Shown here: piece after piece, positions 2,083 through 63,821 of the stretch
Numbering within the stretch: position 1 is the first letter of the stretch
Layout: each line of letters starts with the position of its first letter
IMG/VR virus record: IMGVR_UViG_3300034283_001314
Strand: one strand, 5' to 3'
From: a virus
Taxonomy: Duplodnaviria > Heunggongvirae > Uroviricota > Caudoviricetes
DNA: 64,000 nucleotides
Notes under the pieces: model-generated
Told to the model about the DNA's origin: nothing
Databases searched by the model: none
Seen by the model: the letters and a program-made list of their open reading frames with translations, nothing else
Position numbers and translations under genes: made by a program

Positions 2083-2396
2083 GTTTTATAATAACGAGTA
2101 AATGTACGGATGTATGTGATGGTGGGTGTTTAACGGTTTGTCCTATGGATTGTATTCATGGACCTATCAATCCCACCGGTGCGGGGAAAGAGCTCGCAGA
2201 ATCAAAGGAAAAGGGGCTTAAAGGTATACAAATGTATATAAACCCTAATGATTGTATTGATTGTAGTGCTTGTATACCTGAATGTCCTGTTGACGCCATT
2301 GTTTCTAGTGAGGATGAGGCAATACAACTCGGTGAATATCAATCAGTTATAAAGAATTACGAATTTTTTGGCCTAAAATATTTGGAAAATCAATAA
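2079..2396 (+). CDS. 4Fe-4S ferredoxin
   Basis: 'CIDCSACIPECPVDAI' is a classic CxxCxxCxxxCP cluster motif. A second Cys cluster 'CTDVCDGGCLTVCP' lies near the N-terminus. Confidence 0.7.
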   Translation: MSFIITSKCTDVCDGGCLTVCPMDCIHGPINPTGAGKELAESKEKGLKGIQMYINPNDCIDCSACIPECPVDAIVSSEDEAIQLGEYQSVIKNYEFFGLKYLENQ

Positions 2397-2412
2397 ATCT
2401 TTCGTATCTTTA
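2381..2412 (+). promoter_or_regulatory. Bacteroidetes-type promoter
   Basis: TTTG at 2381-2384 and TTCGTATCTTTA with -7 at 2405-2412, spacing 20. Confidence 0.45.
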
Positions 2413-3025: not shown

Positions 3026-3463
3026 ATGATTAAATGGAAAAAAGAGATGCAAGAAAGTTACAATTTATACTTAGATGATATTAGAGAGCCTTCTCAATCA
3101 TTCAAAAAGAGTGGTGATAGTAGATACAATGATTTAAAATGGAACATTGTTAGATGTTATAGTGAATTTGTAGAAACAATAGCATTAAATGGTATTCCTA
3201 ATATCGTATCATTTGACCACGATTTAGGTGAGGAACATATTAACTACTATTTTGATAATGGTGGTAGAGAAAATCCTCCTGACCCATTAAAAGGTCACTT
3301 TACCGAAAAGACTGGATATGACTGTGCTAAGTGGTTGGTTGAGTATTGTAGTGAAAATGGTTTACCAATGCCAGAATACCTAATACATTCAGCAAATCCT
3401 GTGGGAAGTCAAAATATCCGTTTTATATTGGAAAATTACACTAAAAAACACCCATTTTCATAA
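3026..3463 (+). CDS. hypothetical protein
   Basis: ORF preceded by a strong SD-like 'AAAGGAGTAACAAT' sequence. Confidence 0.55.
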   Translation: MIKWKKEMQESYNLYLDDIREPSQSFKKSGDSRYNDLKWNIVRCYSEFVETIALNGIPNIVSFDHDLGEEHINYYFDNGGRENPPDPLKGHFTEKTGYDCAKWLVEYCSENGLPMPEYLIHSANPVGSQNIRFILENYTKKHPFS

Positions 3464-3536
3464 CTAGTTGATTATCAATGAGTTACGATATTAGAAAAAA
3501 ATCTAATGTGTAAATGATTGATTGTCAACGATTTTA
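3461..3536. repeat. dyad operator-like repeats (TTGATnATCAA core), 2 copies
   Basis: 'gttgattatcaatgagttac' and 'gattgattgtcaacgatttt' are members of a repeat family seen at 6 loci in the window. Confidence 0.5.
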
Positions 3537-3554: not shown

Positions 3555-3586
3555 TTTGGCGGTTTCAAAATAATGTCGTATCTTTG
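3555..3586 (+). promoter_or_regulatory. Bacteroidetes-type promoter (GTCGTATCTTTG class)
   Basis: TTTG at 3555-3558 and TATCTTTG at 3579-3586, spacing 20. Confidence 0.5.
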
Positions 3587-4234: not shown

Positions 4235-6325
4235 ATGGGCTGGTATGACAGTTTTAAAACAGGTACATTAGATTACCTTACAAAAGGTAGTTATTCAAAA
4301 CAAAAAAAGAAATCTGCAAGTTCATTTTGGGCAGATGAGTGGAGCCAGTACGATACTCCTACTACCTATTGGAGTGGTGGTGAATGGAAAACACAACAAC
4401 TTTCCAAAGTAGAAAATAGTACGGCAGAGTTACTTAAACTTAACGCACACAAAAGAGCAATCTCTAACTTTGTAAACATTCTTACAAATAAAAACATTCC
4501 TGTTACATTTGCTAAGAAAGGTGATTCATATACGGATGGTAAATCCGTAGTATTATCAGCTGAGGTTAAACCTGATAAGTTTGACGTTGCAGTAGGTTTA
4601 GCATTGCACGAAGCATCACACATTGTTCTTACAGACTTTGAATTGATGCCTAAGTATAATGCACCTAAAGATATGTTCAATCAGTTTGCAGTTGCAGCTG
4701 GTAAGGACCCTCAAAATTTAGATAGTGTAGAATATCATCTAAACAAAGATAACTTATTTGATGTAGTTAAATCATTGGTAAACTTTGTAGAGGATAGAAG
4801 GATTGATCAATACATCTACAATACTTGTCCAGGTTATAGAGATTATTATAGAGCATTGTATGATGAGTATTTCTATGATACTACTATTGATAAGGGATTG
4901 CAAAGTGATGAATATACGGATGAAACATTACAATCGTATATGTTCCGTATCATTAATATCACAAACAGCAATAGTGACCTTAGTAAGTTAAAAGGTTTGA
5001 AAGAAATTTATCAAATCTTAGACCTTAAAAACATCAATAGGTTAAAATCAACTAAAGATTCATTAGAGGTAGCAGAAAAGATTACTAATACTATTCTAAA
5101 AAACATTAGTATTGAGTTATCCGAAAAACCACAAAATGGAAATGGTGAAGGTGAAGGTGGTGAACCACAAGAAATTGATGATTTGGGAGAAAACTTTGAA
5201 ATTACACAAGGTGATGATAGTGGTGATAATTCATGTACAGGCGTTAAATTATCTAAAAATGCTAAGGCACAATTAGATAAAGCTATTAAGAAACAAAAAG
5301 ATTTCGTAAACAATAATCTTAAAAAGAAAGCCTTAACTAAGAAAGAAAATGATACACTAGACCAAATTGATAAGAGTGGAACTACAATGGAAAATGTAGG
5401 TGATACTAAATTGGAAAATGGTGGACATATTCCAGTAGTTCAATGTATGGTTTCTAAGAAAATGACAGAATCATTGATGCAAGATAGAGAGTTTCCATTT
5501 GCATATTGGAGTGATTATGATAATAAGTTTCACAACTGGAATGAGGAAACATTACGCAGAGGTATTATAATGGGTACTATTTTAGGTAAGAGAATTGCTG
5601 TTCGTAGTGAGGAAAGAGAAACAATCAATCCACGTCAAAAGAATGGTAGAATTGATAAGAGAATGGTAGCGGCATTGGGGTATGATTATGTAAATGTATT
5701 CTCTCACAAAGAAGTAGATAAATTCAAAAAGGTAATGTTACATATTACTATTGATGGTAGTGGTAGTATGAGTGGTAGGAATTGGAATGACTCATTGGCA
5801 TTAGCAATTGCAATTTGTAAAGCAGGTTCAATGGTTAGTAACTTGAATGTGCAGGTATCTATTAGAGGTACTTGGGGTAACAAACCTTACATATGTATTG
5901 CGTATGATAGTAGAGTTGACAAGTTTGAGAAAGTAAAAAGATTGTTCCCTGCTTTACAAGCAAATGGTACAACACCTGAGGGTTTAACATTCCAAGCTAT
6001 TATGAAACACTTTGTAGAAAGTACAAAAGATATGGATAGTTATTTCTTAAACATATGTGATGGTGAGCCTACCTTCTCAAACGATCAGGTAAGTTATGGT
6101 GGCCAAAATGCAGTTCTGCATACTAAGAAAATGGTAAACCAAATTAGAGAAATGGGTATCAATGTAATGAGTTACTTTGTAAGTGAGGGTGGTGGTAGTA
6201 GTTGGGGTAGTAGTTCAAAGGATAAATTCAAACAAATGTATGGTAGTGACAGTAGATTCATAGATGTTACACAAATCGTACCAATTACAAAGACATTGAA
6301 CGAGTTATTTATGAAAAAAGGGTAA
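4235..6325 (+). CDS. von Willebrand factor A (vWA) domain protein, CobT-like partner of an AAA+ ATPase
   Basis: MIDAS motif 'HITIDGSGSMSG' (DxSxS). It is a large protein encoded immediately upstream of a MoxR/CobS-like ATPase. Confidence 0.75.
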   Translation: MGWYDSFKTGTLDYLTKGSYSKQKKKSASSFWADEWSQYDTPTTYWSGGEWKTQQLSKVENSTAELLKLNAHKRAISNFVNILTNKNIPVTFAKKGDSYTDGKSVVLSAEVKPDKFDVAVGLALHEASHIVLTDFELMPKYNAPKDMFNQFAVAAGKDPQNLDSVEYHLNKDNLFDVVKSLVNFVEDRRIDQYIYNTCPGYRDYYRALYDEYFYDTTIDKGLQSDEYTDETLQSYMFRIINITNSNSDLSKLKGLKEIYQILDLKNINRLKSTKDSLEVAEKITNTILKNISIELSEKPQNGNGEGEGGEPQEIDDLGENFEITQGDDSGDNSCTGVKLSKNAKAQLDKAIKKQKDFVNNNLKKKALTKKENDTLDQIDKSGTTMENVGDTKLENGGHIPVVQCMVSKKMTESLMQDREFPFAYWSDYDNKFHNWNEETLRRGIIMGTILGKRIAVRSEERETINPRQKNGRIDKRMVAALGYDYVNVFSHKEVDKFKKVMLHITIDGSGSMSGRNWNDSLALAIAICKAGSMVSNLNVQVSIRGTWGNKPYICIAYDSRVDKFEKVKRLFPALQANGTTPEGLTFQAIMKHFVESTKDMDSYFLNICDGEPTFSNDQVSYGGQNAVLHTKKMVNQIREMGINVMSYFVSEGGGSSWGSSSKDKFKQMYGSDSRFIDVTQIVPITKTLNELFMKKG

Positions 6326-6340
6326 AAAACACCAAAAAAC

Positions 6341-6413
6341 CTAACTGGTTGAGTATCAACAAGTTATGCATAACAATAAAATGGGGTGCATAACTCGTTG
6401 ATTACTAACCACT
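6341..6413. repeat. dyad operator-like repeats, 2 copies
   Basis: 'aactggttgagtatcaacaagttatgcataac' and 'gcataactcgttgattactaacc'. Confidence 0.5.
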
Positions 6414-6423
6414 TAAAAATATA

Positions 6424-6455
6424 TTTGGTAGATTGGCAAAAAAGTTGTATCTTTG
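6424..6455 (+). promoter_or_regulatory. Bacteroidetes-type promoter
   Basis: TTTG at 6424-6427 and TATCTTTG at 6448-6455, spacing 20. Confidence 0.5.
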
Positions 6456-6511: not shown

Positions 6512-7738
6512 ATGAGTAAAAAAATGCAAAACGCAGAGTTCGGTTACACACAAGAGTGTTACAAAGTAGACAACATTAAATCTCGCTTCAACCTTGTTAA
6601 TACAATGGGTGAAGTTGCAGATGATTCAACGATTGTAGGTAGTTCAATGAGAAAGAGAGCACATACAAACGGAAAAGCAATTAGAGGACACATCAATAAG
6701 AATGGTGTGAAAACATATCGTATGGTAGAAATGCAAGAATATACGGATATGTTGGTTAAGCCGATGAATACGGATATCGCAGAAACTATCGTAGAAAATC
6801 CAACGGAGCATAAAGATGTTATTGATTTCATCCACAAAGACGGTATGGAGTTGAAACCTGCTAACTTAATTATGAACGAATTAAAGTGGAAATACTTATT
6901 GCGTTCAGCAGTTAGAGCTCGTAATATTATGATGACAGGACCGGCTGGTAGTGGTAAAACAATGGCAGCTAAAGCATTAGTAAGTGCATTGAAACGCCCT
7001 TTCTTTTACTTTAACTTAGGTGCTACACAAGACCCGAGAGCAGCTTTGATTGGTAACACACACTTTAACAAATCGACTGGTACATACTTTAGTGAATCAG
7101 CATTCATTAAAGCAATTAAGACACCTTATGCAGTTGTATTGTTAGATGAGTTGAGTAGAGCACATCCAGAAGCTGCTAATATCTTAATGACGGTATTAGA
7201 CCAAACACAAAGATACTTACGATTAGATGAGCAAGATAATTCACCAATCGTTGAGGTAGCAAAAGGTGTTACGTTTGTAGCAACCGCGAATATCGGCTCG
7301 GAATATACTGCAACACGTGTTATGGATAGAGCGTTGTTAGACCGTTTTGTAACTATTGAGGTAGATACACTAAACGCAGATCAAGAATATCAGTTATTAA
7401 ATATGTTGTATCCTGATACCAATCAAGAGGATTTGAAAGCAGTAGCTGAAATTGCATCTCACACACGTGACCAAGTAAAAAGTGAGGTTGGTAAATTAAC
7501 AACGGCAGTATCTACTCGTATTTCAGTAGAGATGGCAGGTTTGTTATATGATGGTTTCAACTTATTAGAAGCAGCAGAAGTAGCAATCTTTCCATTCTAT
7601 TCGCAAGATGGTGGTATGGATAGTGAACGTACATATATTAAACAATTAGTTCAAAAATACATCCGTGACGAGAATGATGGTGAAAAGTTATTCAACGAAG
7701 TGACAGAAGATGCTAATGATGATACGATAGTGTGGTAG
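6512..7738 (+). CDS. AAA+ ATPase, MoxR/CobS-like
   Basis: Walker A 'TGPAGSGKT' and Walker B 'VVLLDELSRAHPE'. Neighbours a vWA protein, as in phage CobS/CobT-like pairs. Confidence 0.8.
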   Translation: MSKKMQNAEFGYTQECYKVDNIKSRFNLVNTMGEVADDSTIVGSSMRKRAHTNGKAIRGHINKNGVKTYRMVEMQEYTDMLVKPMNTDIAETIVENPTEHKDVIDFIHKDGMELKPANLIMNELKWKYLLRSAVRARNIMMTGPAGSGKTMAAKALVSALKRPFFYFNLGATQDPRAALIGNTHFNKSTGTYFSESAFIKAIKTPYAVVLLDELSRAHPEAANILMTVLDQTQRYLRLDEQDNSPIVEVAKGVTFVATANIGSEYTATRVMDRALLDRFVTIEVDTLNADQEYQLLNMLYPDTNQEDLKAVAEIASHTRDQVKSEVGKLTTAVSTRISVEMAGLLYDGFNLLEAAEVAIFPFYSQDGGMDSERTYIKQLVQKYIRDENDGEKLFNEVTEDANDDTIVW

Positions 7739-14417: not shown

Positions 14418-14474
14418 AATAACCCAAAAATAGGGTAATATATTACAAAAAATCGTAATATTAACCCATTTTCA

Positions 14475-14590
14475 CAACTCATTGATTATCAACAAGTTAT
14501 AACTTATTGGTTTTCAATGGGTTATCTATGTCTATTAGATTTTTTTTATATATGAAAAAAACATATGCGTAACTGATTGATCCTCAATAA
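14475..14590. repeat. dyad operator-like repeat cassette (nearly identical to 22093-22205)
   Basis: 'aactcattgattatcaacaagttataacttattggttttcaatgggttat' plus 'gcgtaactgattgatcctcaat', about 50 nt of which are shared nearly verbatim with the cassette at 22.1 kb. Confidence 0.6.
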
Positions 14591-14619
14591 AAACTTTTAA
14601 AAATAGTTCAAAAATAGCA

Positions 14620-14649
14620 TTGTTAGTCAAAAATATCGTCGTATCTTTG
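14620..14649 (+). promoter_or_regulatory. Bacteroidetes-type promoter (GTCGTATCTTTG class)
   Basis: TTG at 14620-14622 and TATCTTTG at 14642-14649. The flanking 'cattgttagtc...aaa' is shared with the promoter at 22.2 kb. Confidence 0.5.
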
Positions 14650-14694
14650 GGTATATCCCAACAATGAGGGACTGGTATATAAAAAAATTATAAT

Positions 14695-15540
14695 ATGAAT
14701 ACAATGAAATTTACAACAATCGGTAATGCTAAAAAGGTAACGGGTTTATCTTATTTAGGTAGTGTAGCAAGTAGTTCAAAAATTGCTAAAGGTTTAAAGT
14801 ACAATGAAATGACTTACATTTTGTATCTTGCTCCTGCTGAACAAAGTGGTTACAATGTTTGTCCTGGTTCAACGGCTGAATGCAGAGAAGCTTGTTTAAC
14901 TGAAAGTGGACACAATAGAATTGATGTTAAGAAAAATGCAATCAACAAAGCTCGTATCAAAAAAACTAAATTGTTCTTTGAGCATAGAGAGTTCTTTATG
15001 GGTTGGTTAGTAACTGAAATTAATAAAGCTAGAAACGATGCCTTTGCTAAAGGATATACATTTTCAGTTCGTTTAAATGGGACATCGGATATTCAACCAA
15101 CATTATTTAAATTCAATGGTAAGGTGATTTTTGATGTATTTAACGAAGTGACATTTTATGATTATACTAAGGTTGCTAATCGTTTTAAGTTATTAAATAA
15201 GTATTCTAACTATGATTTAACTTATTCTTTTAGTGGTTACAATATGTTACAATCATTGGAGTTATTAGAAAATAATAAAGGTAGAGTTGCAATGGTATTT
15301 GAAGGTAAACAATTACCCAAATCATTTATGGGTTACAAAGTAATTGATGGTGATGAATACGATATGAGACACTTAGATGAGACGGGTGTAATTGTAGGAT
15401 TGAAGTTTAAGTTTGTTAGAACAAAGATTGATACTGCACATAACAAATTCATTATCCCTATGGATAGCAAGTTTAGTGTGTATGATGTAAACCCTTTGAT
15501 AACAAAAGCTGCTCAAAATAAATTGGCATTAGCTAAGTAA
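14695..15540 (+). CDS. hypothetical protein
   Basis: ATG ORF, first gene after the promoter. It contains a 'CPGSTAECREAC' Cys cluster. Confidence 0.55.
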   Translation: MNTMKFTTIGNAKKVTGLSYLGSVASSSKIAKGLKYNEMTYILYLAPAEQSGYNVCPGSTAECREACLTESGHNRIDVKKNAINKARIKKTKLFFEHREFFMGWLVTEINKARNDAFAKGYTFSVRLNGTSDIQPTLFKFNGKVIFDVFNEVTFYDYTKVANRFKLLNKYSNYDLTYSFSGYNMLQSLELLENNKGRVAMVFEGKQLPKSFMGYKVIDGDEYDMRHLDETGVIVGLKFKFVRTKIDTAHNKFIIPMDSKFSVYDVNPLITKAAQNKLALAK

Positions 15541-22054: not shown

Positions 22055-22092
22055 TGTTCATATATTAAATAATCATAATATATGGATAAAAG

Positions 22093-22205
22093 CATAACTC
22101 ATTGATTATCAGCAAGTTATAAGTTGTTGGTTTTCAATGAGTTATAAATCTTTATGGCATTGGGTAATTATTAAGACGTAACTCGTTGATACTCAATAAA
22201 CAATC
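22093..22205. repeat. dyad operator-like repeat cassette (nearly identical to 14475-14590)
   Basis: 'aactcattgattatcagcaagttataagttgttggttttcaatgagttat' plus 'acgtaactcgttgatactcaat'. Confidence 0.6.
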
Positions 22206-22238
22206 TTTATTTTAGGTAAAAATAGTTTAAAAAAGGCA

Positions 22239-22268
22239 TTGTTAGTCCAATAAAAAGTCGTATCTTTG
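22239..22268 (+). promoter_or_regulatory. Bacteroidetes-type promoter (GTCGTATCTTTG class)
   Basis: TTG at 22239-22241 and TATCTTTG at 22261-22268. Confidence 0.5.
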
Positions 22269-22315
22269 ATTATTACCGACAGGATAAAACACGACACATA
22301 ATAAAAAATTATAAT

Positions 22316-22729
22316 ATGAACTATTATCAAATTGTAGCATTTGCACAAACCTTAAAATCTAAAAATATGAAAAGTAACAATGAGAATGCATTTATCAATG
22401 ATGCGTATGATGAAGAAAGTAAATTACACATTGAGTTTATGAGTGAAGTGAAACGACACGATTATTCTTATATGATGAGTGATGATGATAGAGTTTATAG
22501 AAACGGCCGTAGTGTTGAAAAACAAATTGAAGAAAAACTACACGCACTTATCAACATATGTAAATATGATGCAAGTGATTTGTTGGATGAAGTTCTAACC
22601 AATGTAAAACAAGAATACAATGATAGGGATAGTAACGGAGATGATTTAACACATAGAGTAATTAAAGGTTGGTTCAAACCTTATACTGAAACTGAAAGAA
22701 AATTATTCACATTAAACAACGATAGATAA
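22316..22729 (+). CDS. hypothetical protein
   Basis: ATG ORF after the promoter. Confidence 0.5.
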   Translation: MNYYQIVAFAQTLKSKNMKSNNENAFINDAYDEESKLHIEFMSEVKRHDYSYMMSDDDRVYRNGRSVEKQIEEKLHALINICKYDASDLLDEVLTNVKQEYNDRDSNGDDLTHRVIKGWFKPYTETERKLFTLNNDR

Positions 22730-22730
22730 T

Positions 22731-23840
22731 ATGAAACTAGATACAATATACAAAAAGACAAAGACAGGTGCAACGCAAGAATGGACAATTGAAGTAGTGG
22801 GTAACAAATACCGAACTCATAGTGGACAAGTTGGTGGTGCTATTACTACGAATGAATGGACAATTTGTTATGGTAAGAATGTAGGTAGAGCAAACGAAAC
22901 TACGGATAAAGAACAAACAATGGCAGAAGCCGTAGCAAAGAGAACAAAGAAGTTAGAGAGTGGTTACTTTGAGAATATCAAACACATTAACAAACAACAA
23001 TACTTTGAACCAATGTTGGCAAGTAAGTGGGAAGATAGTAAAGATAAGATTACTTACCCAATCTTTTCACAACCTAAGTTAGATGGTATTCGTTGTGTAG
23101 TGACAAAAGATGGTATGTTTAGTAGAAATGGTAAACCAATCATTTCAGCACCACATATTAGAAAGAGTTTGGATGATATATTTCAAGTATATCCTGAATT
23201 GATATTGGATGGTGAGTTATATGCTGACAAGTTCGCAAATGACTTTAATAAGATTGTATCGTTGGTAAAGAAAACTAAACCAAATGATACCGATTTGAAA
23301 GAAAGTAAAAAGAATATTCAGTATTGGATTTATGATTTACCTGATAACGATATACAATTTGGTGAAAGATGTGAAAGATTAAATGAGTTGTTTGAAAATT
23401 ACAATTCATTCAGTAAGCATTGTGTAGAAGTTGAAACTGAGATTTGTAATGATGAAGATGAAGTGATGGGGTTGTATGAGGAATATGTGGATAATGGATT
23501 TGAAGGTCAGATGTTACGATTGAATAAAGAGTATGAGAATAAGAGAAGTAAATCTTTAATGAAACATAAATCGTTTGTTGATGAAGAATATACTATTTTG
23601 GATATCGTAGAGGGTGAGGGTAATAGAACTGGAACGGCTGGTTATATGGTATTTGAAACGATTGAAGGTAAACGATTCAAATCAAATGTAAAAGGAACGT
23701 GGGATGAAACTGCCGAAATGTTAAAGAATAAAAAGAAACTAATAGGCAAGCAAGCAACGATTAAGTATTTCAATCTAACACCAGATGGAATACCTCGTTT
23801 CCCATATGTAATTAATATTGATAGAAACGAATACGAATAA
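22731..23840 (+). CDS. ATP-dependent DNA ligase (T7-like size)
   Basis: Motif I 'KLDGIR' (KxDG) followed by 'FEGQMLR...K.K'. Length is 369 aa. Confidence 0.7.
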   Translation: MKLDTIYKKTKTGATQEWTIEVVGNKYRTHSGQVGGAITTNEWTICYGKNVGRANETTDKEQTMAEAVAKRTKKLESGYFENIKHINKQQYFEPMLASKWEDSKDKITYPIFSQPKLDGIRCVVTKDGMFSRNGKPIISAPHIRKSLDDIFQVYPELILDGELYADKFANDFNKIVSLVKKTKPNDTDLKESKKNIQYWIYDLPDNDIQFGERCERLNELFENYNSFSKHCVEVETEICNDEDEVMGLYEEYVDNGFEGQMLRLNKEYENKRSKSLMKHKSFVDEEYTILDIVEGEGNRTGTAGYMVFETIEGKRFKSNVKGTWDETAEMLKNKKKLIGKQATIKYFNLTPDGIPRFPYVINIDRNEYE

Positions 23841-40560: not shown

Positions 40561-40765
40561 TATAACTCATTGGAAATCAACCACTTAGAAAATCCCTATA
40601 AAATACTGATAATCAACGAGTTATAACTTGCTGATAATCAATTAGTTGTGTAAAGTACTGAAAATCAATCAGTTATGCAATCCGTTGATTATCAGCAAGT
40701 TATGTCCGGTCCTAACATATAACAAAAAAACATATATGTAACTTGTTGATTATCTATAAAAAACT
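40561..40765. repeat. cluster of at least 5 dyad operator-like repeats
   Basis: Examples are 'ctgataatcaacgagttataacttgctgataatcaattagtt' and 'ccgttgattatcagcaagttatg'. 'catatatgtaacttgttgattatctat' is shared with the copy at 14563. Confidence 0.6.
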
Positions 40766-40783
40766 TTTAAAAATAGTTTGCCC

Positions 40784-40818
40784 GTTTGCCTTTTGTATTA
40801 AAAAAAGTCGTATCTTTA
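40784..40818 (+). promoter_or_regulatory. Bacteroidetes-type promoter (GTCGTATCTTTA class)
   Basis: TTTG at 40785-40788 and TATCTTTA at 40811-40818. It is preceded by the conserved 'aaaacttttaaaaatagtt'. Confidence 0.5.
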
Positions 40819-40865
40819 TGTATTGAGTTGAGAGATTGACTCGTCACATTAAAAAAAAATTATAT

Positions 40866-41240
40866 ATGAATAGTAGATTAACAAACCAATTTAGTGAAGT
40901 GGCTTTCAATACTGCCAGAAATGAGAAACCCGTTTATTTAAATTTCGCGGCGAGTAAAATGAGTCAGGCAGTTAAACCTAATTCAGTAGTAGAATTTAAA
41001 GACTTTATGGGTCGTTCGCATAAGGTAGTATGTAAGAACAATACCGAAATTAAAAAGGCGATGGCTTTCTTTAGTGAATTGAAAAAAGAGTCTTTAGCTA
41101 TTACGCGTATTATCGCACAATATCCAATGAGTTACGGACAAGTAACAAAGAAATTTATTCCTGAAGTTAGACGTGAGTTGAAAGGTATTGGGTTAAATAA
41201 CAAAAGTATTGAAAAGGTCCTTATTATGTATTGGGCCTAG
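40866..41240 (+). CDS. hypothetical protein
   Basis: The ATG at 40866 is used because the track start at 40836 is TTG. Confidence 0.5.
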   Translation: MNSRLTNQFSEVAFNTARNEKPVYLNFAASKMSQAVKPNSVVEFKDFMGRSHKVVCKNNTEIKKAMAFFSELKKESLAITRIIAQYPMSYGQVTKKFIPEVRRELKGIGLNNKSIEKVLIMYWA

Positions 41241-41388: not shown

Positions 41389-41706
41389 ATGAATAGGAAA
41401 AAACGAATTGATAGAAATCATATCATATACGAATTAACTAACACAATCAACGGCAAACAATATTTAGGTATTACTCAAGCAATAGGTAGAAGGTTTAACT
41501 ATTCAGTTTTACGAAGATTTCAAAAACACGTTAGTAGAGCAAAGCAAGAAGATTGGGGCTGGGCGTTGTATAAGGATATGAGAAAATTTGGACCTGATGT
41601 TTATGATGTTTGTTTGATTGAAGTAGTGAGAGGTAAAGCAGAAGCACATAAAATAGAAACGGAATTATTACAACGATACGAATACAAATTAAATTCAACA
41701 CACTAA
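41389..41706 (+). CDS. GIY-YIG nuclease domain protein
   Basis: 'IIYELTNTINGKQYLGIT...RRF..H' matches the GIY...YIG...R signature. Confidence 0.55.
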   Translation: MNRKKRIDRNHIIYELTNTINGKQYLGITQAIGRRFNYSVLRRFQKHVSRAKQEDWGWALYKDMRKFGPDVYDVCLIEVVRGKAEAHKIETELLQRYEYKLNSTH

Positions 41707-54351: not shown

Positions 54352-55010
54352 GAATTGCAATAGTGTGTAATGGTAGGAGTGGTTCCACATCAACGTTTTA
54401 TTATTTAAAGTGTTGTTTAGCTAGAGAACGTAAAAAATATGATTCTTTCTTTGAACCATTTAATTTTATAAATCCAGATAGAGAGGATACATACAACCAA
54501 CTAAAAACAATTGATGAAATAATAAATAAAAAAAACATATTAATAAAAACATTTATAGATAGTGATAATTACCCATATGAATCTTTTAAAAGTGTAGAAG
54601 ATTATTGGGAATGGTTTTATTCATTTTTTGATAAAATAATAGTATTAGAAAGAAAAAATAAAAGATTACAAGCCGAATCACTGGCCTATCATATTAGAAT
54701 ATCTAAAAATAAAACACCTTTACAAACTTGGCATACACAAAAATATTATGAATTAACAGAGGATGATGAGGATGCTGTAATAAAACTAACACATCATTTA
54801 GAATCAGAATCATTAGTGTTAAAATTTATTTCAGATAAAGGGTATCCACTATTTTATTATGAGGATATATTTGTTAATAAAGATATTGAAACGATAAAAC
54901 GTTTAAACGAATATTGTGAAATAGCATATAGTCAAATATGTATTGATGAGTGGATAAATTCTCCATATAAAAAAGTAAGAATAGAAGAAAAGTCAACTAA
55001 ATTAATATAA
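54348..55010 (+). CDS. sulfotransferase-like P-loop protein
   Basis: N-terminal 'IAIVCNGRSGSTSTFYYL' resembles the RSGST PAPS-binding loop of Sulfotransfer_3/NodH-type enzymes. Confidence 0.35.
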   Translation: MRIAIVCNGRSGSTSTFYYLKCCLARERKKYDSFFEPFNFINPDREDTYNQLKTIDEIINKKNILIKTFIDSDNYPYESFKSVEDYWEWFYSFFDKIIVLERKNKRLQAESLAYHIRISKNKTPLQTWHTQKYYELTEDDEDAVIKLTHHLESESLVLKFISDKGYPLFYYEDIFVNKDIETIKRLNEYCEIAYSQICIDEWINSPYKKVRIEEKSTKLI

Positions 55011-56074
55011 TGATAGATTTAAAACAATATGTTTGTACGGTTCCGTTTGAGGCATTAGAAATACATGAAAATAAAAATTTTATGTGTTGTGCAAGTTGGT
55101 TAAAAAAAGAATTACCCAATGGGGTTCCCATAAAAGAATTATGGAATTCAGATGAAGCAATTGAAATACGAAAATCTGTAATGGATGGTTCTTATCGTTA
55201 TTGTGATAAAACACAATGTCCATTTTTAGCTAGATTAATATCATTAAATAAAAGTATTTCCGGGCCAGTTATCCACATAGATAATTTGAGTGATGAAATG
55301 AAAACAAATTACGATAGACAAACTGGTATAATTCCAAATGGACCTAAAATAATTCAAATGTCATTCGATAGAACTTGTAATTATAAATGTCCATCATGTA
55401 GGGTTAATATGATTGTTGCAAATAGTGATAAAATAAAAAGTGTAAATCTTACAATAGAAGAAATAGAAAATGCATACTCCGATTCAATTGAAACAATTTA
55501 TTGTTCTGGAACAGCTGATCCATTTGCATCTGTTTCATATAGAAATTTTTTAAGAAATTTTAATCCAAAAAAATATCCAAATTTAAAATCAATCCATCTA
55601 CATACAAACGCCAGTTTGTGGAATGAAGAAATGTGGGATAGTATGCCAAATATACATAAATATGTTCACAGTTGTGAAATTAGTATTGATGCTGGTACTC
55701 AATATACTTACGAAAATGTAACAAGGTTGGGAGGCAATTGGGATAATCTGATCTCAAATTTAAATTTTATTTCAACTATAAAATCTTTACATAGTGTTAA
55801 ATGTTCTTTTGTCGCCCAACAATCAAATTATAATGAAATGGAAACATTTTTAAATTTAATATATTCTATATTCAAAAATAAAACTAAAGTCTTTTTTGGT
55901 AGGATAACAAATTGGGGAACATTTAGTGATGGTCAATTTAAATTAATTGATGTTGGTAATGATACACATCCAGAACATAAATTATTTTTAAAACAATTTA
56001 AAAAAGTTGCAACCAATCCATATGTTTTTCATAATATGTATGAATTAATTGATATGAAAAAAACATTACTATAA
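55010..56074 (+). CDS. radical SAM enzyme
   Basis: 'SFDRTCNYKCPSCR' matches the CxxxCxxC motif. The N-terminal region has additional Cys residues. Confidence 0.6.
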   Translation: MIDLKQYVCTVPFEALEIHENKNFMCCASWLKKELPNGVPIKELWNSDEAIEIRKSVMDGSYRYCDKTQCPFLARLISLNKSISGPVIHIDNLSDEMKTNYDRQTGIIPNGPKIIQMSFDRTCNYKCPSCRVNMIVANSDKIKSVNLTIEEIENAYSDSIETIYCSGTADPFASVSYRNFLRNFNPKKYPNLKSIHLHTNASLWNEEMWDSMPNIHKYVHSCEISIDAGTQYTYENVTRLGGNWDNLISNLNFISTIKSLHSVKCSFVAQQSNYNEMETFLNLIYSIFKNKTKVFFGRITNWGTFSDGQFKLIDVGNDTHPEHKLFLKQFKKVATNPYVFHNMYELIDMKKTLL

Positions 56075-56571
56075 TGGTGATTACACAAAATGTTTTATTT
56101 ACAAAATTAGAATGTGATTCTATAATTTGGCAAAATACAGATGTAACAAATTGGAATAAAAATGATAGAAAATATAAATCAATTTTATTAGAGTATTCAG
56201 ATGATACTGAATGGATCTTTTTAAAATTGAAAAATTTTGTTGAAGAATCAACAAATATAAAAATTACTAATTTAAAAAAGGTAATACATTTTCATAAATT
56301 TAATGAGATGGATTGGTTTGATAAACATAATGATGATAAAGATAATAGAATTTATGCAGTTGGTGTTTTGTTAAATAATGACTTTAAAGGTGGTGATTTT
56401 AAATTATATAATCCAGATGAAATAATATTAGATAAAGTTATTGGTAACACTTATACATTTGATGTAAGAATTGAACACGAAATAACACCTATACTTAAAG
56501 GAGAGCGATATTCATTACTTTGGTTTTTACAAAAAGAACATATTAAATTTAATACAAATAAATTATTATAA
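56074..56571 (+). CDS. 2OG-Fe(II) oxygenase (P4H-like small form)
   Basis: 'KHNDD' (HxD), 'RIEHEI' and 'GERYSLLWF'. Confidence 0.55.
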   Translation: MVITQNVLFTKLECDSIIWQNTDVTNWNKNDRKYKSILLEYSDDTEWIFLKLKNFVEESTNIKITNLKKVIHFHKFNEMDWFDKHNDDKDNRIYAVGVLLNNDFKGGDFKLYNPDEIILDKVIGNTYTFDVRIEHEITPILKGERYSLLWFLQKEHIKFNTNKLL

Positions 56572-56596
56572 CTAATTGATAATCAACAAGTTAGGA
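56568..56596. repeat. dyad operator-like repeat (single copy)
   Basis: 'ataactaattgataatcaacaagttagg'. Confidence 0.5.
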
Positions 56597-56613: not shown

Positions 56614-56643
56614 TTGGTAAATTGAGAAAAAAGTCGTATCTTT
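56614..56643 (+). promoter_or_regulatory. Bacteroidetes-type promoter (GTCGTATCTTTA class)
   Basis: TTG at 56614-56616 and TATCTTTA at 56636-56643. Confidence 0.5.
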
Positions 56644-56668
56644 AAGTATAAACATTAAACTCTAAGAT

Positions 56669-57289
56669 ATGAAATTTTTATCCTTTTTAGGTATAATTCT
56701 AATACTTTCTAGTTGTGAAAAAAACGTAAGTGTTCCACCTACATTCACTCAACCCACATTTTCTTTTTCAATTGATTCGGCGTTAGTTGGTAATGGTACA
56801 AAGGCATTATCCAAAGATAAAAACGGATATTATCATTTACTAGTAGATACTAATTTATTACAAACATTCTCAAGAGTTACAGGTAAAGTTTTAGTAAATG
56901 GTAAACCAAACCCATTAGCACCCACTTTAGTTGAAAATGTTAGAGTAGAATGGAAAAGTTCACATTATTGGATATTGAATGTAGGACAACAAACTATAAG
57001 TGTATATAAAACATATTTCAACAAATATCAGGCAAAACTAAAAACCGTATTATTAGGTATTATGGTTGCACAACGAAGTGAGATTATTCCGACAGTAAAT
57101 CCAACATCATATCCATCAACTGAAACGGGTGAAGTAAATACCATAGTTGCACCAATTACTCTAATGAAAGGTGATACACTAATAATTACCGGCAAAGCAT
57201 TTTTCTCATATGCAGTTCCTAAAGATAAACTTTTTAGTACACCTAAATTAGATTCGATAGAAAAATCGATTCAAATAATTTGTGATTAG
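56669..57289 (+). CDS. lipoprotein
   Basis: 'MKFLSFLGIILILSSCEK' is a signal peptide with a lipobox. Confidence 0.55.
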   Translation: MKFLSFLGIILILSSCEKNVSVPPTFTQPTFSFSIDSALVGNGTKALSKDKNGYYHLLVDTNLLQTFSRVTGKVLVNGKPNPLAPTLVENVRVEWKSSHYWILNVGQQTISVYKTYFNKYQAKLKTVLLGIMVAQRSEIIPTVNPTSYPSTETGEVNTIVAPITLMKGDTLIITGKAFFSYAVPKDKLFSTPKLDSIEKSIQIICD

Positions 57290-59419: not shown

Positions 59420-59442
59420 TTCAGTTATATTTCGTATCTTTA
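59412..59442 (+). promoter_or_regulatory. Bacteroidetes-type promoter-like motif (TCAGTTATATTTCGTATCTTTA, identical to 62508-62529)
   Basis: TTG at 59412-59414 and TATCTTTA at 59435-59442. Oddly, it lies upstream of a terminator hairpin. Confidence 0.35.
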
Positions 59443-62494: not shown

Positions 62495-62508
62495 AAAGTA
62501 GGTTTTTT
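62485..62508 (+). terminator. rho-independent terminator
   Basis: AACCTACT-aaaa-AGTAGGTT followed by T6. Confidence 0.6.
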
Positions 62509-62529
62509 CAGTTATATTTCGTATCTTTA
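62508..62529 (+). promoter_or_regulatory. -7 promoter element (TCAGTTATATTTCGTATCTTTA, identical to 59421-59442)
   Basis: TATCTTTA at 62522-62529, 13 nt before the ATG at 62543. There is no clear -33 TTG. Confidence 0.35.
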
Positions 62530-62542
62530 TAAAAATAACACT

Positions 62543-63445
62543 ATGAATTTAGGATATGCTTGTATTAATCTTTCTTTAGGTAAGAAAGTTACAACAAACC
62601 GAACAATGATTAAACGAACCTTTATTGATAAGGGATTAGATTATGTGTCGGATTTGGTATTGCAAAATGTTACAGACTTAGAAAAGATTATAGATTGGAA
62701 TGAGCAGAATAATATTAAGATGTATCGTATGAGTTCCGATATGATGCCTTGGGCTACTGAATATCAATTTAGTGAATTAAAGGATTGGAACGAAATATCT
62801 ATTATCCTTAAAAGATGTGGTGAGAAGGCAACAAAGTATGGACAAAGATTATCATTTCATCCAGGTCCGTTTAATGTATTAGTATCACCAAAAGAAAGTG
62901 TTGTACTTAATACTATTAACGATTTAGAAGTACATGGTAGACTTATGGATGCTATGGGATTATCACAAACACCCTACAATAAGATTAATATTCATTGTAA
63001 TGGTGTATATGGGGATAAACAAAGTGCAATGGATAGATTTATAACTAATTTCGGAAGACTCTCTAAATCGGTGCAAAATAGGCTTACAATAGAGAATGAT
63101 GATAAGGCAAGTATGTATTCCGTAAAAGATTTAATGTATATTCATCAAAAGATAGGTATTCCTATTGTATTTGATTATCATCACCACAAATTTTGTACAG
63201 GTGATTTAACCGAACAACAAGCATTAGAGTTAGCAATGAGTACGTGGCCTGACGATATAACACCAGCAGTTCATTATTCCGAATCTGCAGTTGGTAAAAA
63301 ACCACAAGCACATTCCGATTATATTTCTGAAACAATTAATACTTATGGTAATACCGTAGATATAATGGTAGAAGCTAAGAAAAAAGATTTAACAATTTTA
63401 AAATATAAACAAGAAAATTATGGCATACTCAGAAAAAGTGCTTGA
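62543..63445 (+). CDS. UV-damage endonuclease (UvdE/Uve1 family)
   Basis: The N-terminus 'MNLGYACINLSL' and the roughly 300-aa length fit UvdE TIM-barrel endonucleases. Confidence 0.55.
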   Translation: MNLGYACINLSLGKKVTTNRTMIKRTFIDKGLDYVSDLVLQNVTDLEKIIDWNEQNNIKMYRMSSDMMPWATEYQFSELKDWNEISIILKRCGEKATKYGQRLSFHPGPFNVLVSPKESVVLNTINDLEVHGRLMDAMGLSQTPYNKINIHCNGVYGDKQSAMDRFITNFGRLSKSVQNRLTIENDDKASMYSVKDLMYIHQKIGIPIVFDYHHHKFCTGDLTEQQALELAMSTWPDDITPAVHYSESAVGKKPQAHSDYISETINTYGNTVDIMVEAKKKDLTILKYKQENYGILRKSA

Positions 63446-63821
63446 TCATTACGCAAATCCTAAAAATGTAGGAACTTTAGATAAATCAAAGCAAAATGTA
63501 GGAACTGGTTTAGTTGGTGCACCAGAATGTGGTGATGTAATGAGATTGCAATTAGAAATTAATGATGGAATTATTACTGATGCAAAATTTAAAACGTTTG
63601 GTTGTGGAAGTGCAATTGCAGCTTCATCTTTAGCAACTGAGTGGTTAAAGGGTAAAACTTTGGATAAAGCAGTAGAATTAGATAATATGGATTTAGTAGA
63701 GGAATTATCACTACCACCGGTTAAAATACATTGTTCAGTATTAGCACAAGATGCAGTTAGAGATGCTATTAATGATTATAGAAAGAAAAACAATTTAGAA
63801 CCAATTAAATTTGAAGATTAA
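63420..63821 (+). CDS. iscU: Fe-S cluster assembly scaffold IscU/NifU-like
   Basis: 'LDHYANPKNVG...GAPECGDVMRLQL...FKTFGCGSAIASSS...HCSVLA' carries the three conserved Cys residues and matches the IscU core. Confidence 0.75.
   Translation: MAYSEKVLDHYANPKNVGTLDKSKQNVGTGLVGAPECGDVMRLQLEINDGIITDAKFKTFGCGSAIAASSLATEWLKGKTLDKAVELDNMDLVEELSLPPVKIHCSVLAQDAVRDAINDYRKKNNLEPIKFED

Follow-up and report, generated by a model that had tools for sequence, protein, structure and literature searches.

Herein, a 64,000-nucleotide stretch of viral DNA (IMG/VR virus record IMGVR_UViG_3300034283_001314; Caudoviricetes), hereafter the window, was analysed, and a 23-bp palindrome, TAACTnnTTGATnATCAAnnAGTTA, was found in 15 full and three half copies at seven loci (2.3, 3.5, 6.4, 14.5, 22.1, 40.6 and 56.6 kb). 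With a probability of roughly 0.55, this palindrome is a symmetric IHF-type site that would be bound by a homodimeric HU/IHF-family (DNABII) protein of a host from the FCB superphylum (which comprises Fibrobacterota, Chlorobiota, Bacteroidota and their relatives). The sites stand 5' of seven host-type promoters, in register with the helix, where they would serve to bend the DNA. In the wider setting, the palindrome is most likely a docking site that is also used by numerous unrelated mobile elements of that bacterial group, among them phages, plasmids and integrating elements.

The 23-mer has the layout A1A2C3T4-NN-T7T8G9A10T11-N12-A13T14C15A16A17-NN-A20G21T22T23(A24). When up to three mismatches were allowed, the pattern AACTNNTTGATNATCAANNAGTT gave 14 matches in the window against 0.23 expected, and none of 100 shuffles reached 14. 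A position-weight scan was sharply bimodal, with 15 full sites scoring at least 19.9, followed by three promoter-proximal degenerate copies and then by noise (best score, 8); as the matrix was derived from the window's own sites, the shuffle test of the pattern is the independent statistic. Furthermore, the exact half-site ATCAANNAGTTA is confined to the seven loci, and in the three half copies it is present in the distal half only. About 89% of the window is coding, yet gene bodies hold no site; the copy at 2326-2348 falls within the final 70 nt of its open reading frame (ORF), directly 5' of the next promoter. The repeated palindrome is thus real and statistically strong. A first-pass annotation of this DNA had already described the repeat, which stands, with at least 13 copies at six loci, a count that has to be replaced by 15 full and three half copies at seven loci, including the additional site at 2326-2348. 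Its description of the 14.5- and 22.1-kb cassettes as near-identical holds over both sites, and the homology extends to the start codon, while the five copies it placed at 40.6-40.8 kb were recovered as five full copies plus one half copy. A similar density of the motif in coding DNA had been named as a result that would speak against it; with no site in gene bodies, the motif is not refuted on this count.

The geometry of the palindrome matches that of IHF sites. Each half matches the IHF core consensus WATCAANNNNTTR, so that both strands carry it and share the central W. Exactly 9 bp separate the TpT step (positions 7/8) from the ApA step (16/17), the dyad lies on the W position, and T22T23A24 follows 4 bp past ATCAA, an arrangement mirrored on the other side. 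In IHF sites, WATCAA begins near the site centre with TTR four bp beyond it, and the prolines of the protein intercalate at two mid-site ApA steps nine bp apart (PMC1874591); WATCAR has likewise been placed between the kinks and TTR in the flank (bioRxiv 10.1101/382655). The 9-bp step spacing, the dyad on W and the TTA four bases further on, present on both sides, together make this a perfectly symmetrised IHF site, the form that a homodimer of the HU/IHF family with IHF-like preferences would be expected to select. Such a sequence points to an architectural HU/IHF-family host factor rather than to a classical repressor or activator. Exact matches to WATCAANNNNTTR are concentrated accordingly, 18 of the 23 in the window lying inside the seven cassettes, which occupy well under 2% of it. 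Across 213 unique sites, drawn from the window and related loci, the near-invariant positions are those of the IHF consensus (A1A2/T22T23 and T8G9A10/T14C15A16). A variant with 2 bp added to the spacer was found at 8 IMG/VR loci versus at least 116 for the real motif, making it at least 14-fold rarer. In addition, the three half copies, together with a site on a Hymenobacter swuensis plasmid, combine one consensus half with an A/T-rich half, which is the canonical asymmetric IHF layout.

A palindrome at gene ends could also work as a nucleic-acid structure, that is, as an intrinsic terminator, an RNA processing hairpin or a DNA cruciform. The sites can be drawn as hairpins, several lie at or just past stop codons (those at 3463 and 56571 fall within a site), and perfectly self-complementary versions follow tRNA genes in some Flavobacteriaceae. 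However, the RNA hairpins predicted for the window sites reach only -2.9 to -7.3 kcal/mol, contain internal loops and lack a U-run, whereas a genuine terminator in the window has -9.5 kcal/mol and a U-run. Mirrored positions in the 213 sites pair no more often than independent half-sites would, with complementarity of 0.25 observed versus 0.30 expected at positions 5/19, 0.49 versus 0.45 at 6/18 and 0.63 versus 0.62 at 3/21, and the palindrome has no match in Rfam. A structural role is therefore extremely improbable: half-sites that vary independently, weak hairpins and the absence of an Rfam match argue for a double-stranded site recognised by a two-fold symmetric protein.

Every site of the window is located 5' of a (G/T)TCGTATCTTT(G/A) box, the fuller form of which is (G/T)T(C/T)GTATCTTT(G/A). 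The GTCGTATCTTTR box has 12 matches in the window against 0.59 expected, seven of which carry palindromes, and its first position is G in six of these seven promoters versus one of the five others. We take the box to fit the -7 element TAnnTTTG of the Bacteroidota primary sigma factor, with a TTG -33 element 18-21 nt upstream; the sigma-A promoter of this phylum was reportedly described by Bayley in 2000 and by Chen in 2007 as -33 TTTG and -7 TAnnTTTG. Of the 13 plus-strand matches to the composite (TTG, 18-21 nt, TAnnTTTG), nine are in intergenic DNA, which makes up 11% of the window; the promoters at 3579, 6448, 14642 and 22261 are among these nine. A second promoter class without palindromes was also observed, in which the identical 23-mer TTCAGTTATATTTCGTATCTTTA occurs at 59420-59442 and 62507-62529, each time directly after an intrinsic terminator.

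All 18 copies stop at least 9 bp upstream of the -33 element, so that the -33/-7 core is overlapped by none, and, measured from the T of TATCTTT, their centres are 45-236 nt upstream (45 to 68 nt for the proximal full sites, 60 to 70 nt for the half copies). The earlier proposal of an operator-like element usually 30-120 nt upstream of promoters hence needs correction in both respects: the distances are different, and no copy overlaps a core promoter or start site or takes up a blocking position in transcribed DNA. When positions within +/-400/200 nt of a TCGTATCTTT box were considered, sites were upstream of the box in 63 of 69 cases. In a set of 42 non-identical promoters, the distance between the proximal site and the -7 box takes preferred values near -45, -56, -67, -76, -99, -110, -121, -132 and -141. 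The best period is 10.75-11 bp (R = 0.65), a value matched by 0 of 5000 random draws, or by 20 of 5000 when unique distance values only are used, and these statistics are indicative only because the loci are not phylogenetically independent. In six relatives, the orthologous CobS-like promoter has kept both sites, the -33 ATTTGG and the -7 box as conserved blocks, and the relatives differ by indels of 9 and 10 bp that fall between the proximal site and the -33 element. The multi-site arrangement at 40.6 kb is kept in loci L004, L067, L106 and L113. Sites at orthologous promoters of the relatives are kept while the spacers diverge, and they are held there by selection. Such dependence on the face of the helix is what would be expected of a DNA-bending protein or of an upstream activator; it does not suit an operator.

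The sites could alternatively be operators or activator sites of a conventional dimeric transcription factor (for example helix-turn-helix, ribbon-helix-helix or Rrf2-like with an 11-1-11 dyad), of host or phage origin, in which case the IHF match would be coincidental; the first-pass annotation took this view. The 23-bp 11-1-11 dyads with independent half-sites, the promoter-upstream positions at distances resembling those of class I activators and the helical phasing all suit such a factor, and most window genes are ORFans among which a DNA-binding protein could have gone unrecognised. On the other hand, the core promoter is never overlapped, and the gene content and the contexts outside the window, described below, fit it poorly; on balance, this explanation is possible but doubtful. 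Among individual candidates, FNR/CRP was set aside on spacing, its site being TTGAT-N4-ATCAA as opposed to N1 here, and Fur, NrdR and C-protein boxes differ in sequence. A LexA-like SOS operator of Bacteroidetes was also considered and rejected, GGA-N5-TCC or CTAA-N5-TTAG (PMC8565304) being unlike the palindrome.

The 14.5-, 22.1- and 40.7-kb cassettes share homology that starts at the sites, takes in the promoter and the ribosome-binding site, and reaches the start codon. They lie at 14460-14700, 22080-22320 and 40660-40870 and have a conserved AAAAAATTATAATATGAA translation start. This homology suggests the duplication or shuffling of entire promoter cassettes, as in the PeSL elements of T4. 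It also allows the sites to be seen as ends or recombination targets of mobile promoter cassettes, moved by a homing endonuclease or recombinase and lacking a regulatory role of their own, and a small GIY-YIG gene (41389-41706) does lie just 3' of the largest array. Nevertheless, this explanation is very unlikely, given that sites are kept at orthologous promoters where the downstream proteins share only ~30-70% N-terminal identity and the spacers have diverged, that single sites occur in plasmid origins and chromosomes, and that the sites are helically phased to the promoter. The 105-aa GIY-YIG nuclease-domain gene itself is two genes downstream of the five-site array, in a neighbourhood preserved in L004, L067, L106 and L113. 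The gene directly after the array (40866-41240) belongs to no family, and its sequence matches to enkurin in the PDB are weak and probably spurious.

The palindrome is by no means limited to this phage. An exact-match scan of IMG/VR returned at least 116 loci, compared with 0 and 2 for two composition-matched shuffled palindromes; by weight matrix, 60 of the 116 loci listed carry at least two sites, their GC content is 28-53%, and pair spacings of ~25 and 48-51 bp recur. Some of these loci are kin to this phage and many are unrelated. In the high-GC contigs L101 and L016, the sites stand 5' of promoters of the sigma-70 kind (CTTGCG...TATACT), which indicates that the palindrome is not bound to a single promoter dialect. 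In L025 (18 sites), L016 and L101, IMG/VR contigs of 42-53% GC, site pairs 48-51 bp apart enclose a GC-rich spacer, which often contains GGGGCCCC; this unit recurs 5' of nearly all small genes and, in L101 and L016, is followed by an A-run and sigma-70-like -35/-10 elements. Among GenBank phages, every full-length match is in a Bacteroidota phage.

Cellular genomes were scanned with 18 specified bases over 596 Gb, one genome per GTDB species being used, and at least 120 loci were obtained. Among the matches listed, 104 of 120 belong to Bacteroidota (88), Fibrobacterota (15) or Ignavibacteriota (1), with eight in the PVC group (Planctomycetota-Verrucomicrobiota-Chlamydiota and relatives) and eight in other groups, the latter being about the number estimated by chance for 18 bases in 596 Gb. 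At the genome loci listed, no protein is shared with the window. Five of the eight PVC matches among those listed have matrix scores of 29-34, examples being found in metagenome-assembled genomes (MAGs) of Kiritimatiellae, Oligosphaeraceae, Pedosphaera, Lentisphaeria and Planctomycetales (L157, L182, L197, L216 and L236); this may mean that the factor or its sites reach past the FCB group, but mis-binning or a mobile-element nature of the contigs could also account for it. A further concentration was noted in the Microscillaceae MAG Prado074, where 25 contigs (L124, L130, L136, L153, L164 and others) hold 78 strong sites over a total of 174 kb (one every ~2.2 kb), and five sites lie inside a longer common repeat beginning CAATACTTCGGACAGTTTTTATAAGTAATTGATTATCAGCTAGTTATGC. 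These contigs may come from a giant phage or a plasmid set that was mis-binned, or may reflect a dispersed element of the REP type.

Outside the window, four Rep3-type replicons on Saprospiraceae MAG contigs (L156, L163, L173 and L210) share the order of an A/T-rich or hairpin block, the palindrome, iterons and rep; the iterons are unrelated between replicons, whereas the palindrome is conserved. Plasmid pHsw3 of the cultured Hymenobacter swuensis (L246, ~6040-6200), which was found by BLAST of a 31-mer against PLSDB (the other matches there being mostly uninformative), is arranged in the same way, with four iterons followed by the asymmetric site mentioned above and an A/T-rich block. When pHsw3 is included, these small replicons have four to nine iterons each. 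In the prototype crAssphage, a single site, TTATAACTTATTGATAATCAAGTAATTATAA (L237:1057-1087, corresponding to BK010471.1 95979-96009), occupies the divergent region beside the RepL-like gene gp88, directly 3' of two 28-bp direct repeats CGAAATCTATTCCATGTATGGTATAAAT, and this region looks like a replication origin. At least 11 genome sites are located 10-18 bp past the 3' end of a tRNA; tyrosine integrases adjoin them in L146, L223, L224 and L225 and an inovirus replication gene in L159, while others have ordinary chromosomal neighbours. In three Fibrobacteraceae genomes (L137:6664, L234:4484 and L215:2325), one strong site has been kept ~150 bp 5' of a 136-aa ORF, within a divergent intergenic region that has a secreted-protein gene on the opposite side, although the flanks have diverged and the GC content ranges from 53% to 34%. 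The 136-aa ORF was examined as a possible regulator and dismissed, as it has no family and no homologue in the window.

These contexts (att arms, plasmid origins and promoters) are the ones expected of IHF. A conventional transcription factor, in contrast, would fail to explain sites set between A/T-rich DNA and iterons at four plasmid origins or beside att cores. Separately, Flavobacteriaceae chromosomes (L188:1908-6310, L144:1359 and L186:4771) contain a perfectly self-complementary version, AACTCCTTGAAAATCAAGGAGTT, which lies 18 bp past ARAGORN-called tRNA 3' ends in L144 and L186 and between apparent tRNA genes in the repeat array of L188. Unlike the phage sites, these versions could be true hairpins.

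The question of which protein reads the palindrome was approached through gene content. In the genes of the window, most of them ORFans without a family, Pfam and NCBIfam flag no sequence-specific DNA-binding domain, helix-turn-helix or other; about 110 genes were covered in total. No Pfam DNA-binding domain and no DNABII gene were found in the window or 10 kb either side. When the 2353 ORFs within 2.5 kb of sites were clustered, no protein family was common across element types, the largest families being a Mom-like protein and unknowns. The lack of a neighbouring family common to all contexts argues for a host-encoded factor, and both this and the empty domain search weigh against a conventional regulator. 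The zinc-finger and histone H1-like proteins suggested by the first-pass annotation as binders gain no support from the domain search, and a regulon private to this phage is not supported in view of the presence of the palindrome in at least 116 IMG/VR loci, plasmid origins, tRNA/integrase junctions, crAssphage, and Bacteroidota and Fibrobacter genomes: rather than being confined to one phage lineage or immunity group, it is found in unrelated contigs (GC 28-53%), plasmids, integrated elements and chromosomes. What survives of the proposed dimeric regulator near promoters is the dimeric or two-fold symmetric protein and the link to promoters, without the operator, the phage regulon or the named binders.

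The same type of site could instead be read by a phage-encoded HU/IHF-family protein, similar to TF1 of SPO1 or the IHF-like proteins of crAss-like phages, which the jumbo phage would make or inject in order to reprogram its own promoters, on or off. An IhfB-like protein is encoded in two unrelated viral loci (L015 and L093), which makes a DNABII gene elsewhere in the genome a live rival; moreover, the window is 64 kb of a >200-kb genome, and arrays of five sites suggest a dedicated and abundant protein. Nonetheless, those two loci are the only ones with such a gene: none is present in the window, in its 10-kb flanks or within 2.5 kb of sites in the other loci, and the very small Rep3 replicons and tRNA/integrase junctions that bear the palindrome cannot all carry one. 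A phage-encoded binder is accordingly judged unlikely.

For the preferred reading, a host DNABII protein, we infer the binder, the bending and the transcriptional effect as follows. The palindrome would be a high-affinity site of a homodimeric HU/IHF-family protein, most probably encoded by a Bacteroidota-type host, whose two identical subunits would each contact the DNA in the 'consensus-side' manner, so that it folds into a U-turn. At seven promoters of the host-sigma type, one proximal site, full or half, would present this bend on a fixed face of the helix 5' of -33, with up to five more sites behind it, and the bend would return upstream DNA, or further bound protein, onto RNA polymerase. 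The effect on the promoters is guessed to be stimulation, the sign itself being a committed guess. A suitable class of proteins exists, as Bacteroidetes carry one to three classical HU/IHF proteins, one of which is the host factor of CTnDOT (PMC5499826), and E. coli IHF can stand in for that host factor in vitro (PMC2034462). In the literature searched, no published consensus for an IHF-like host factor of the FCB group was found, and a search for homodimeric or palindromic IHF sites returned nothing relevant. That mobile elements exploit a host bending factor is well established; neither the symmetric consensus nor its use across the superphylum appears to have been described in that literature.

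A variant concerns which DNABII protein of the host is involved. HU-HIG proteins, which are expanded specifically in Bacteroidota, have been proposed to intercept invading DNA (PMC5499826). The binder could be one of these proteins instead of the housekeeping HU/IHF protein, and the palindrome may then mark an interface of conflict between mobile elements and host. Mobile elements of the superphylum would then carry it in order to hijack or titrate a host DNABII protein directed against them, and the jumbo phage would use its arrays either as a sponge or to switch its early promoters by sensing defence. This variant is regarded as quite unlikely.

Several points weigh against assigning the palindrome to a host DNABII protein. 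The resemblance to IHF was spotted post hoc, through a literature string match of the half-site, and could be coincidence, and the conserved positions C3/G21 and T4/A20 go beyond the E. coli IHF consensus. The 25-bp dyad spacing may be too tight for two adjacent U-turn complexes, and the half copies are about half a helical turn off the register of the full proximal sites. The boxes are taken to be Bacteroidota host-sigma-type promoters, with function and start sites deduced from the consensus. In addition, many of the related loci lack phylogenetic independence, and the rest of the >200-kb genome, outside the window, could encode its own binding protein.

If the assignment is true, the IHF-like host factor of the FCB group would have this palindrome as its recognition sequence, which would provide a one-line predictor of replication origins, including the RepL region of crAssphage, of the att arms of integrating elements, and of promoters that depend on the factor in phages, plasmids and integrative elements of Bacteroidota. 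The organisation of early-type transcription units in a freshwater jumbo phage would be explained as well. Furthermore, the symmetric site would be a natural counterpart of the asymmetric E. coli site and a clean substrate for structural study of how DNABII proteins read DNA shape. The coordinates of all copies and of their promoters are collected in Table 1.

Table 1. Palindrome copies and associated -7 boxes in window coordinates; negative values give the position of the site centre relative to the T of TATCTTT.
Locus	Feature	Position	Strand	Remarks
A	full site	2326..2348	.	centre 68 nt upstream of T of -7 box; in 3' end of ORF 2079-2396
A	-7 box TTCGTATCTTTA	2401..2412	+	
B	distal full site	3462..3484	.	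TAA of site is stop codon of ORF 3026-3463
B	proximal full site	3512..3534	.	centre -56
B	-7 box GTCGTATCTTTG	3575..3586	+	TTG -33 element 20 nt upstream
C	distal full site	6343..6365	.	kept in relatives L003, L032, L083, L097, L112
C	proximal full site	6392..6414	.	centre -45; kept in relatives
C	-7 box GTTGTATCTTTG	6444..6455	+	5' of CobS/MoxR-like AAA+ ATPase gene 6512-7738
D	full site	14476..14498	.	exact pattern match
D	full site	14501..14523	.	dyad 25 bp from dyad of 14476 site
D	asymmetric half copy	14571..14593	.	exact ATCAATCAGTTA on minus strand; promoter-side half A/T-rich; centre -60
D	-7 box GTCGTATCTTTG	14638..14649	+	5' of GP88-family gene 14695-15540
E	full site	22096..22118	.	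pattern and weight scan
E	full site	22121..22143	.	dyad 25 bp from dyad of 22096 site
E	asymmetric half copy	22180..22202	.	exact ATCAACGAGTTA on minus strand; centre -70
E	-7 box GTCGTATCTTTG	22257..22268	+	5' of ORF 22316-22729 and DNA ligase gene 22731-23840
F	full site 1/5	40564..40586	.	pattern and weight scan
F	full site 2/5	40600..40622	.	pattern and weight scan
F	full site 3/5	40625..40647	.	pattern and weight scan
F	full site 4/5	40652..40674	.	weight-matrix scan only
F	full site 5/5	40679..40701	.	pattern and weight scan
F	asymmetric half copy	40740..40762	.	exact ATCAACAAGTTA on minus strand; centre -60
F	-7 box GTCGTATCTTTA	40807..40818	+	5' of ORF 40836/40866-41240
G	full site	56570..56592	.	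centre -56; TAA of site is stop codon of ORF 56074-56571
G	-7 box GTCGTATCTTTA	56633..56644	+	5' of ORF 56669-57289

The window is AT-rich (25-35% GC), with all plausible genes on the plus strand. These include a CobT/VWA-like and CobS/MoxR-like ATPase pair, a GP88-family protein, an ATP-dependent DNA ligase, UvdE, two N6/N4 methyltransferases, radical-SAM and flavodoxin-like proteins, the small GIY-YIG protein and many ORFans, a content that is accessory and early-type. Identical proteins occur on metagenomic contigs of 0.2-1 Mb, which places the window in a jumbo phage, and the phage is a freshwater one. No near-identity DNA match was found in GenBank phages, and protein searches recovered distant relatives only, among them a 484-kb uncultured phage. 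No origin-like iterons were detected at 39.4-40.9 kb, nor iterons or an integrase beside any window site. About 4 kb 5' of the window start, the same phage encodes a 1092-aa protein with CarboxypepD_reg and OMP beta-barrel domains (L238:6006-9284), a TonB-dependent-receptor or SusC-like outer-membrane protein. An auxiliary cluster unusual for a phage was also seen (55010-56074 and 63420-63821, continuing downstream in L241/L243), with radical SAM, NifU-like and HesB-like Fe-S assembly, peptide deformylase, HSP20, epimerase and carbamoyltransferase genes.

Among known systems, one likeness is to the IHF sites that precede lambda pL, Mu Pe and sigma-54 promoters in E. coli, which have the same core consensus WATCAANNNNTTR and 9-bp spacing of kink steps, lie tens of bp upstream on a defined helical face, and represent a host architectural factor exploited by phage. 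The differences lie in the perfect two-fold palindrome found here, where the E. coli site has one consensus side and an A-tract, in hosts from Bacteroidota/Fibrobacterota instead of Proteobacteria, and in the up to five tandem sites per promoter; consensus on both sides implies a homodimer, not an alpha/beta heterodimer as in E. coli IHF. IHF sites are also known at the pSC101 and R6K gamma origins and at H', H1 and H2 of lambda attP. The related loci resemble the former where the palindrome separates an A/T-rich block from the iterons 5' of rep, and the latter where it lies 10-18 bp from tRNA-borne att cores beside integrases, although these contexts belong to other elements and not to the window. 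TF1 of SPO1, a phage HU-family (DNABII) homodimer acting at early promoters, offers a parallel in its sequence-preferring binding; however, it is phage-encoded, needs hydroxymethyluracil DNA and represses, and the window and its 10-kb flanks hold no such gene.

Dispersed repeats provide further comparisons. The RIP/RIB elements of E. coli, extragenic palindromes with an IHF site at the 3' ends of transcription units, are likewise repeated intergenic elements at gene ends, but the window sites have no flanking REP palindromes and are coupled to the downstream promoter, not just to the upstream gene end. The T4-type PeSL cassettes are alike in being repeated, homologous, host-type early-promoter cassettes in a hyperplastic region of small ORFans on one strand; they join a promoter to a stem-loop, whereas here an array of predicted protein-binding palindromes stands upstream of the promoter. 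Finally, the P1 C1 sites, the L5/Bxb1 stoperators and the RK2 KorB sites also consist of many dispersed copies of one site near promoters. Those sites serve the element's own regulator and overlap promoters or lie in transcribed DNA, whereas the palindrome described here occurs in unrelated elements throughout a superphylum and keeps to positions 5' of the core promoter.

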